This document shows, in pieces, positions 19,702-49,122 of a stretch of DNA of 64,000 bases. The first letter of the stretch is position 1; each line of letters begins with the position of its first letter. Location of the stretch: NCBI RefSeq assembly GCF_988243305.1, contig NZ_OZ547136.1, one strand, 5' to 3'. Below the pieces are notes generated by a model. The model ran no database searches. It was not told the DNA's origin and saw nothing but the letters and a program-made list of their open reading frames with translations. A program made the translations under genes and the position numbers.

Positions 19702-19849
19702 CAAATTCTCCAGCAATGACAGTTAATGCGCCGATACATTCACAAATCATGCCAGTTTTTAATTTACTGTTATTTAAGGAAATTAAATTCTGTAATGCAG
19801 GAAAAACGATGTCATCGACACTAGTGACGATGACATGTGATGACAATGT

Positions 19850-20860
19850 TTATTGCGAAAGAGCAATGAGGGAGCCGCGGCGGATCAGTTTTCCGCTGAA
19901 GGTTTTCGGCGGTGAGAAATCCCCACCATCGAGCATAAAAATCAGCCGTCCAATAATTTCCTGAATCATCTCAGTCACCGGAATTTTTACGCTGGAGAGC
20001 GCCGGAACGATATAGGGGGCAATGGCGATATCATCGAATCCGATAACTGACACCTGCTCTGGCACCGCTACGCCGCGCTCGTGTAACGCTTTCATCGCAC
20101 CTATCGCCATATCGTCGTTACTGGCAACTAACGCGCTAAATTTAGCCCCACGTTCGAGCAACGTTTCTACCCCTTCGGCCCCGCTGGCGGGCGTCCATTT
20201 ACCGTTAGCGATAAGTTTTTCATTGAGCGCAATACCATGCTGCGACAGCGCGTCTTTATACCCGGCAAGACGTTCAATGCTGGTGGGGGAATCCATCGAG
20301 CCGGTAAGGAAAGCAATCTCCTGATGCCCGGCGTTTATCAACTCTGCCACGGCGTTAAAGCTGGTCTGTTTATGATCGCACCAGACGCTATGGCTGCTAT
20401 TTTTGCGCAGGCGGCGATTAAGCACCATTATCGGCTGACTGTGTGCGTCAATGATGTCATCAATCTCATCCACACTTAAAAAACGCGGGTAAATCATAAT
20501 GGCGTCGCAGCGCAAATCCAGCAGATACTGAATCGCCTGGCGCTCTTCTTCGGCGCTGTGTTTACCATCTGCCAATAGCAACTGCCGCCCTTTCTCTTCC
20601 GCCATTCGCGCGGCATGAAACAGTAATTCACTAAAATAAATGCCGTGGTAAAGTGTGTTGGTCACGACCAGCCCCAGCGTCTGAGTACTCTTCGCCGACA
20701 GATTGCGCGCCAGCAAGTTTGGACGGTAACCGCTCTCTTCTACCGCCTGAAACACGCGATCTTTAGTCTCCTGGCTGACGTAGCCATTACCTGAAAGCAC
20801 GCGGGAAACGGTCGCTTTTGAAACCCCGGCGCGCTTCGCCACTTCCAGCATCGTCGTCAT
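19850..20860 (-). CDS. ascG: LacI/GalR-family repressor of the asc operon
   Basis: Start trimmed to MTTMLEVAKRAGVSKATVSRVL (HTH), with periplasmic-binding-protein-like core. Confidence 0.93.
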   Translation of the reverse strand: MTTMLEVAKRAGVSKATVSRVLSGNGYVSQETKDRVFQAVEESGYRPNLLARNLSAKSTQTLGLVVTNTLYHGIYFSELLFHAARMAEEKGRQLLLADGKHSAEEERQAIQYLLDLRCDAIMIYPRFLSVDEIDDIIDAHSQPIMVLNRRLRKNSSHSVWCDHKQTSFNAVAELINAGHQEIAFLTGSMDSPTSIERLAGYKDALSQHGIALNEKLIANGKWTPASGAEGVETLLERGAKFSALVASNDDMAIGAMKALHERGVAVPEQVSVIGFDDIAIAPYIVPALSSVKIPVTEMIQEIIGRLIFMLDGGDFSPPKTFSGKLIRRGSLIALSQ

Positions 20861-20946
20861 CATTTTCATCCCTTTACACGTAATCAACGCAGTGTACTGC
20901 ACCGTTTGCCGATTGTCCTTGCGCAATCGGCGGGAAAAATATTCAG

Positions 20947-20960
20947 GTGACCGGTTTCAC
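20947..20960 (+). promoter_or_regulatory. Putative AscG operator 1 (GTGACCGGTTTCAC)
   Basis: Imperfect palindrome centred on CCGG in the ascG-ascF divergent region. Confidence 0.6.
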
Positions 20961-21020
20961 AAATATAAAAAATGAACAATTAACTCTCTTGCTTATTTAG
21001 TGACAACTATTCATGATTTT

Positions 21021-21035
21021 GTGAAACCGGTTTCC
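21021..21035 (+). promoter_or_regulatory. Putative AscG operator 2 (GTGAAACCGGTTTCC)
   Basis: Contains the perfect 12-bp palindrome GAAACCGGTTTC; second copy of the same motif about 74 bp from operator 1. Confidence 0.65.
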
Positions 21036-21119
21036 TAATTCCGTTTCAGCATCGGCATTTTTCCGTCACGTCGACTGATAACAACTACATCTACCCTACT
21101 GATAACAGGATAAAATCCG

Positions 21120-24010
<2,891 letters not shown>

Positions 24011-32661: not shown

Positions 32662-32677
32662 AGCATTTTTTGTGCCA
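32662..32677 (-). promoter_or_regulatory. Sigma-54 promoter for the hyc operon
   Basis: Minus strand reads TGGCACAAAAAATGCT (GG-N10-GC) about 40 bp upstream of hycA. Confidence 0.7.
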
Positions 32678-32790: not shown

Positions 32791-32806
32791 TGGCACAATT
32801 ATTGCT
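32791..32806 (+). promoter_or_regulatory. Sigma-54 promoter for the hyp operon
   Basis: TGGCACAATTATTGCT is a perfect -24/-12 element about 30 bp upstream of hypA; TCGAC-rich repeats upstream (about 32725-32760) are consistent with an FhlA UAS. Confidence 0.75.
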
Positions 32807-47982: not shown

Positions 47983-49122
47983 TTATCGCTGCGGCAAATA
48001 ACGCAGCGGGTTTACGGATTTCCCCTTGTAACGAATTTCAAAATGCAAGCGTGTTGAACTGGTTCCGGTGCTACCCATGGTTGCTATTTTTTGCCCCGCC
48101 TTCACTTCTTGTTGTTCCCGGACCAGCATTGTGTCGTTATGGGCGTAGGCACTCAGGTAATCATCATTATGTTTGATGATAATCAGATTACCGTAGCCGC
48201 GCAGCGCGTTACCGGCATAAACAACGCGGCCATCTGCGGTCGCGATAATTGCCTGTCCTTTGCTGCCTGCGATATCAATCCCCTTGTTGCCCCCCTCAGA
48301 AGCGCCAAAGGTTTCGATCACTTTGCCCTCAGTCGGCCAGCGCCAGGTGGAGATAGGCGTACTGGTTGATGTACTGCTGACAGTCGGCTCGGTTGTGCTT
48401 GCTGTTGGTACCGTTACAGGCGCTGTGACCGTGGTCGCAGTTGGCTTGTTGTTCGGCAACATTTTGTTAGCACTCTGTTCACCCGAAGACTCAGAATACG
48501 TAATTGTCGGTTGCGACGCAACAGCAACGGTGGAATTTTGTGCAGGCTTGATCACAACTCCTTGCTCTGCTGCGTCGGCCTGGGTAATGGCATTTCCGCC
48601 AGTGATTGGCGTACCGGAAGCATTACCCACCTGCAAGGTCTGACCAACGTTCAGCGCGTATGGTGCCTGAATATTGTTGCGCTGAGCAAGGTCACGGAAA
48701 TCGTTGCCAGTAATCCAGGCGATATAGAAAAGTGTGTCGCCTTTTTTCACGGTATAGGTACTGCCGCTATAGCTGCCTTTCGGAATGTTCCCATACTGAC
48801 GGTTATAGACGATGCGTCCGTTTTCCATCTGTACCGGCTGCTGAGCTACTGGCTGCACCGGCTGGATTTGCGGTTGTTGAGTGGCCTGAATTTGTGGCTG
48901 CTGTACCGGCTGAATTTGCGGTTGCTGCGCTGTAGACGTCGTTCCCATTTTCGGCGGTGGCGTAATCAACATACCAGAATTGGTATTTGCAGGCGCATTG
49001 CCATTAACGGAGCTGACCGGTGCCGGTGGATTTGAAGTGTCAGAACAGCCTGCCAGCCATAGCGAAACCAGTGACAAAGCCGCAATGCGGCGAACGGTGA
49101 ATTTTGGGCTTCCCGCGCTCAT
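47983..49122 (-). CDS. nlpD: Murein hydrolase activator lipoprotein NlpD (LysM + M23 domains)
   Basis: 379 aa with lipobox LAGCS, QPQIQ repeats and C-terminal M23 peptidase-like domain; rpoS promoters are known to lie within it. Confidence 0.95.

Follow-up and report, generated by a model that had tools for sequence, protein, structure and literature searches.

Two CCGG-containing sites lie between a LacI-family repressor gene and a PTS operon in the 64-kb stretch of DNA analyzed here (hereafter, the window). Do they form a pair of operators for one repressor, bridged by a DNA loop, as an earlier note on this sequence proposed, or are they sites for different proteins? The sites are GTGACCGGTTTCAC at 20947-20960 (site 1, with CCGG at 20951-20954) and GTGAAACCGGTTTCC at 21021-21035 (site 2, with CCGG at 21027-21030). 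Their coordinates and their placement between the two transcription units were confirmed, and the flanking genes are ascG and ascF. The distance between them, put at about 74 bp in the note, measures 74 bp from start to start and 76 bp between the CCGG centers. The locus is the already described ascG-ascFB control region of E. coli, with ordinary biology and no new looping system.

The ascG-ascFB locus

The asc operon is the cryptic beta-glucoside operon of E. coli. Its promoter has already been dissected in that species, with repression by AscG, activation by CRP and two reported AscG sites. Ishida, Kori and Ishihama are said to have described the ascG-ascFB regulatory region of E. coli K-12, with its AscG operators and its activation by CRP, in 2009 (J Bacteriol 191:6136). 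The gene order in the window is hypF-hydN-ascG on the minus strand, ascF-ascB on the plus strand and then hycI, the same order as in E. coli (Table 1). The ascG product matches the Pfam domains LacI HTH and Peripla_BP_3, the latter a periplasmic-binding-type sugar domain, and is essentially identical to the AscG proteins of PDB entries 3DBI and 3BRQ.

Table 1. Features of the ascG-ascFB region, with positions in the window
Feature	Position	Strand	Description and basis
ascG	19850-20860	minus	LacI/GalR-family repressor, 336 aa; ORF and translation, annotated as ascG in E. coli genomes
Site 1, CRP site GGTGACCGGTTTCACA	20946-20961		Symmetry center between 20953 and 20954; pattern match, invariant arms, published ChIP-seq
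Predicted -35 of ascFB promoter, TTGCTT	20989-20994	plus	Cross-genus conservation of a CTTG block at constant distance from the AscG box
Predicted -10 of ascFB promoter, CATGAT	21012-21017	plus	Conserved CATGAT/GATGAT block, constant in its distance from the operator
Site 2, primary AscG operator TGTGAAACCGGTTTCCTA	21020-21037		Core GAAACCGGTTTC, center between 21028 and 21029; match to K-12 PascF, conservation, matrix rank
Extra AscG-type half-site hexamer, GTTTCA	21043-21048		13 nt downstream of the right half of the operator; third such hexamer
ascF	21120-22577	plus	PTS EIIBC, leading gene of the regulated ascFB operon; ORF, Pfam PTS_EIIB and PTS_EIIC, annotation
ascB	22586-24010	plus	6-phospho-beta-glucosidase; Pfam Glyco_hydro_1, annotation

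The divergent spacer between ascG and ascF is 259 bp long (20861-21119). Aligned to K-12 MG1655 together with 20 bases on each side (299 aligned bases), it shows 4 differences; one of the four falls on the final base of GTGAAACCGGTTTCC (position 21035; C in the window, T in K-12). Of 5426 complete E. coli genomes, 4698 carry the ascG-ascF region. Among 4699 E. coli records, 4546 have exactly the window's 40-mer around site 1, and 2149 have exactly its 40-mer around site 2; the remaining 2550 show one or two mismatches in the latter.

Over the ascG-ascF region (19800-22600), the best identity among the matches listed for the 5426 complete E. coli genomes was 98.9%, and nearly all records fell between 95 and 99%. 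The closest species-representative loci were on a contig binned as a "Citrobacter sp." MAG, with 99% identity in AscG, and in Escherichia sp. E1V33. The former is probably a mis-binned Escherichia contig, and the window may come from a less-sampled Escherichia lineage.

The two sites against the background of the window

Perfect 12-nt palindromes number 15 in the window, against 15.6 expected, so that palindromy of this length is unremarkable by itself. A search of the window for TGAAACCGGTTTCA with up to 3 mismatches returned 6 matches against 2.96 expected and showed no enrichment; we therefore turned to a weight matrix instead. It was derived from the orthologous operators of 78 other species, which are not independent of one another, and every position of the 64-kb window was scored on either strand. 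Site 2 ranked first with 29.8 bits and site 1 second with 9.5 bits, and the next locus scored 2.6.

The 11-mer TGTGAAACCGG is common to both sites in inverted orientation: the minus strand of site 1 reads TGTGAAACCGGTCACCTG, and the 11-mer is shared with the left half of site 2. The hexamers TGAAAC/GTTTCA occur three times in the 259-bp spacer (at 20954, 21022 and 21043), against 0.13 expected. The two sites stand out by their context, that is by matrix rank, the common 11-mer and conserved positions, and not by palindromy.

Assignment of site 2 to AscG

The earlier note had recommended a comparison with characterized AscG operators, and this comparison favored site 2. Guharajan et al. 2021 (PMC8667592, Table S3) give an AscG binding sequence, TGAAACCGGTTTCT, taken "from PascF", and site 2 is identical to this K-12 sequence at 13 of 14 bases. 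In the same work, AscG acting on TGAAACCGGTTTCT repressed a synthetic promoter strongly when the sequence was placed at +1, and almost not at all when it was placed at -61 (PMC8667592). Site 2 contains the perfect 12-nt palindrome GAAACCGGTTTC at 21023-21034 and agrees at 14 of 16 positions with GTG(A/G)AACC/GGTT(T/C)CAC, an even-length palindrome with a central CpG step.

Orthologous loci were collected by searching with the AscG protein against contigs from one genome per species. This yielded 80 loci with 66-99% identity, in genera that include Escherichia, Citrobacter, Enterobacter, Klebsiella, Raoultella, Kluyvera, Leclercia, Aeromonas and Sodalis. In every one of the 80, ascF is divergently adjacent to ascG, and the spacer contains GTG(A/G)AACCGGTT(T/C)C (80/80). 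When the sequences of 78 species, ranging from Escherichia as far as Aeromonas and Sodalis, were aligned on this box, positions -9 to +8 around the center of site 2 were almost invariant; the Aeromonas operator is the perfect 16-mer GTGGAACCGGTTCCAC. On this sequence evidence, site 2 is an AscG operator.

The C found at operator base 21035 in the window is the usual state in other genera. The alternation of C and T at this end of the operator looks like a common dimorphism of E. coli, and C at this position may change operator strength slightly.

Two further elements resemble AscG half-sites. The GTTTCA downstream of the operator (Table 1) recurs at the same offset in many, but not all, genera. 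Within the promoter spacer, 21 bp upstream of the left half of the operator, the half-site-like GTGACAAC occupies 21000-21007, a place taken by GTGAAACT in many, again not all, other genera. Both elements could be auxiliary AscG contacts.

Assignment of site 1 to CRP

The description of the sites as paired CCGG-centered palindromes suits site 2, but not site 1. In site 1 the symmetric arms GTGA/TCAC are centered one base off the CCGG and enclose a non-palindromic spacer of 6 nt, an arrangement that matches the 5-6-5 plan of CRP sites; GGTGACCGGTTTCACA agrees with TGTGA-N6-TCACA at 9 of 10 positions. In 78 other species the equivalent of site 1 reads G(T/C)GATC-nnnn-TCAC: the G, G, A and TCAC never vary (78/78), and A, C, G and T all occur at the four central positions (spacers TCGTCA, TCCCAT, TCAAAA and others). 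Fixed arms around a free center argue for a CRP footprint and against that of a LacI-family protein, since the latter would keep the central CCGG. Haycocks et al. 2015 (PMC4287617, Table 1) report 111 high-confidence CRP ChIP-seq sites for ETEC H10407, and the exact 16-mer of site 1, located between ascG and ascF, is among them (PMC4287617).

From the pattern of arms and spacer in the orthologs and from the published CRP ChIP-seq, site 1 is above all a target of CRP. Of the pair of operators originally envisaged, the downstream member is an AscG operator, whereas the upstream member is mainly a CRP site, with 78/78 conserved arms and a published ChIP-seq peak. The more general expectation that both are binding sites for regulatory proteins of the asc operon is borne out by the PascF match of site 2 and the CRP ChIP-seq at site 1.

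Elsewhere in the window, the sole other 9/10 match to the CRP core is TGTGACCGTGGTCGCA at 48424-48439. This 16-mer, too, is listed among the CRP ChIP-seq sites of ETEC H10407, where it lies inside the nlpD gene (PMC4287617).

Promoter geometry and a model of regulation

The conserved CTTG and CATGAT blocks, the predicted -35 and -10 elements of ascFB (Table 1), lie 17 nt apart, and both fall between site 1 and site 2. A consensus promoter and terminator scan of 20800-21200 found nothing, including no strong sigma-70 promoter. Both blocks are weak, which fits the empty scan as well as the CRP dependence and crypticity of the operon. From the conservation and spacing of these blocks, ascF transcription would start at about 21023-21025, within the AscG operator; with such a start, the operator would be centered at about +4 to +5 and the CRP site at about -70.5 to -71.5.

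The distance between the CRP and operator centers is 75 bp in 41 species, 74 bp in 32, 65 bp in 4 and 73 bp in 1. The jump of about one helical turn (75 versus 65 bp) is expected if CRP acts from class I positions close to -71.5 and -61.5. The conserved spacing of 74-76 bp can be explained by the geometry of class I contact between CRP and RNA polymerase, with no need of a loop.

We propose that ascFB is transcribed from a weak sigma-70 promoter in the 259-bp spacer, and that this promoter depends on CRP and is silenced by AscG. CRP-cAMP would activate from site 1, at a class I activator position, and an AscG dimer bound at site 2, just downstream of the predicted -10 and over the predicted start, would block RNA polymerase. 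In Escherichia, AscG would also bind weakly to site 1 and compete there with CRP (anti-activation). The identities of the two sites come from the data above or from published work, and we infer the -35 and -10 elements, the transcription start, the class I position of CRP and the double role of site 1. Taken as a whole (a CRP-dependent promoter, AscG at site 2, CRP at site 1 and possibly weak AscG binding there), we consider this model quite likely to be correct.

For ascG itself, a reading of the letters suggests a candidate promoter on the minus strand at 20891-20896 and 20914-20919 (-35 AGGACA, 17-nt spacer, -10 TACACT). Its GCAGTGTACT block recurs in some Citrobacter spacers. The CRP site would lie about 70 bp upstream of the candidate ascG start too, and might serve both divergent promoters.

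Possible use of site 1 by AscG

The spacer and right arm of site 1, CCGGTTTCACA (20951-20961), match an AscG half-site perfectly, central CCGG included. Compared with the AscG palindrome consensus, site 1 matches at 12 of 16 positions: the right half and center are perfect, and the left half matches at 4 of 8. This resemblance is inflated, because the TCACA arm is common to both consensus sequences. An AscG core at this position is found in Escherichia and Kluyvera only, and the CCGG center is not conserved in other genera. The spacer is CCGGTT in Escherichia and TCGGTT in Kluyvera, with CGGTT common to both; in two Kluyvera species it is TCGATT, in which the central CCGG is broken. In a neighbor-joining tree of AscG, Escherichia clusters with Citrobacter, and Kluyvera is not its sister group.

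AscG may also bind site 1 in Escherichia and displace CRP. The AscG and CRP axes at this site are one base apart, which precludes joint binding, so that displacement of the activator is the likely effect. It is plausible that AscG makes a second, weaker contact at site 1, given that Meinhardt 2012 refers to Ishida 2009 for the presence of two AscG sites at ascFB. Our search of the literature found no data on AscG repression through the site 1 sequence.

The gene cluster prpBCDE is the other published target of AscG. In the K-12 prpR-prpB spacer we counted 5 TGAAAC/GTTTCA hexamers, against 0.12 expected, and a palindromic AscG box, sought in this spacer as an independent reference, was not found. 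The presence of hexamers without a palindrome at prpBCDE suggests that half-sites may suffice for AscG binding. Between 150 and 200 of the spacer record, in the promoter region, four direct TGAAAC repeats (aaTGAAACgcggTGAAACattgccTGAAACgttaacTGAAAC) are accompanied by one GTTTCA.

Our tentative suggestion, which we regard as possible and would not press further, is that in Escherichia, and independently in Kluyvera, an ancestral CRP site gained an embedded AscG half-site and became a mutually exclusive activator/repressor switch. Alternatively, site 1 might be a CRP site only, with AscG acting at site 2 alone and the likeness of site 1 to an AscG operator a coincidence aided by the common GTGA/TCACA arms; the reported second AscG contact would then perhaps be the GTTTCA at 21043. 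This fits the unconstrained center of site 1 in most genera, the 4/8 match of its left half to the AscG half-site, and a simple count in which site 1 is one of five 3-mismatch matches, no more than chance; a third half-site hexamer also adjoins site 2. Several observations make this alternative rather unlikely, however. Within a CRP site, a complete CCGGTT spacer would arise by chance about once in 4096 cases, and CGGTT recurs in a non-sister clade, Kluyvera. At spacer position 1, where 72 of 78 other species have the CRP-preferred T, E. coli departs toward the AscG consensus. Site 1 is, in addition, clearly second in the AscG matrix ranking of the window.

If the embedded half-site is indeed used by AscG, it would represent convergent evolution of anti-activation on top of simple promoter occlusion, and it may add to the tightness of asc crypticity in E. 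coli. The possible overlap of CRP and AscG in one element would be a small example of the merging of repressor and activator sites.

DNA looping

The remaining possibility, that both sites are AscG operators and that AscG at the two of them closes a repression loop over the promoter in the manner of lac O1-O3 or gal OE-OI, is very improbable. It draws on the presence of two AscG-like sites, inverted and with TGTGAAACCGG in common, on the two AscG sites at ascFB attributed to Ishida 2009 in a later article, and on the fact that several LacI/GalR paralogs loop DNA. Against these points, AscG (336 aa) aligns to LacI only to about residue 331, ends at the equivalent of about LacI residue 334, and lacks both the tetramerization helix and the leucine-heptad tail. 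In the LacI-AscG chimera LLhA/Q55A, repression depended less than 2-fold on operator spacing, unlike wild-type LacI, LLhG/E62K and LLhT/V52A, for which repression varied with spacing; the authors of the chimera study remark on the contrast between the LLhA/Q55A result and the two annotated ascFB sites.

The comparative data also speak against a loop. Selection does not appear to hold two operators for the same repressor in place, as the upstream AscG-like core is missing in most genera. Outside Escherichia and Kluyvera the spacing is kept all the same, which argues that it is not maintained for a loop between two AscG proteins. The 76 bp between centers correspond to 7.2 helical turns, a distance that is short and not clearly in phase, and the upstream site is occupied in vivo by CRP (published ChIP-seq, PMC4287617). 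The looping proposal of the earlier note is not supported, given the missing tetramerization tail of AscG, the less than 2-fold effect in LLhA/Q55A and a conserved spacing that CRP geometry can explain.

A look-alike set of paired palindromes beside a LacI-family gene is not automatically a looping pair; here a comparative footprint separates the activator site from the operator. The importance of this result beyond correct annotation is small.

Other features of the leader and window

An RNA element in the ascF leader was considered and rejected: the predicted fold is no more stable than that of shuffled sequence (z = -0.34), and no Rfam match was found in the leader. An inverted repeat is present in the leader at 21050-21064 and 21108-21122; CAUCGGCAUUUUUCC could pair with the Shine-Dalgarno/AUG region, and the pairing forms in the predicted fold. 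The leader also contains an exact 10-nt direct repeat, ACTGATAACA, at 21074-21083 and 21098-21107, 24 nt apart and just upstream of the Shine-Dalgarno sequence.

Two good matches to the sigma-54 (-24/-12) pattern face opposite ways, TGGCACAAAAAATGC at 32663-32677 on the minus strand and TGGCACAATTATTGC at 32791-32805 on the plus strand, and presumably mark the divergent hycA/hypA promoters of the formate regulon. A sigma-54 pattern search beside ascG, upstream of hydN, gave no clear match; an RpoN gSELEX peak has been reported upstream of hydN next to ascG (PMC8743547).

Comparison with known systems

The region corresponds to E. coli K-12 ascG-ascFB in locus, gene order and the 259-bp spacer. 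Site 1 is identical in the two, and the operator is TGAAACCGGTTTC(T/C); the difference is its last base, T in K-12 and C in the window.

With the lac O1/O3 and gal OE/OI loops, the asc region has in common a LacI/GalR-family repressor, two similar sites flanking a promoter and a nearby CRP site; in lac, O3 adjoins the CRP site. It differs in that AscG has no tetramerization domain, the chimera assay gave no looping signal and the upstream AscG-like site of asc is not conserved.

Site 2 also resembles the target of PtxS, a LacI-family protein of Pseudomonas, in its ideal palindrome, TGAAACCGGTTTCA, and in its predicted placement over or just after the transcription start (+5 to +18 for PtxS). 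The regulator, its effector (2-ketogluconate) and its regulon are unrelated to those of asc, so the likeness is one of DNA specificity only.

Class I CRP promoters such as lac P1, with CRP at -61.5, share with asc a TGTGA-N6-TCACA site followed by a weak -35/-10 pair, predicted in the case of asc, and a shift of distance by about one helical turn is seen across the asc species (75 versus 65 bp). As in lac P1, a LacI-family operator would overlap the predicted asc start point. With that same predicted start, the asc CRP site would be centered at about -71 in most species and not at -61.5 as in lac P1, and, in a further difference from class I promoters, it may double as a repressor site.
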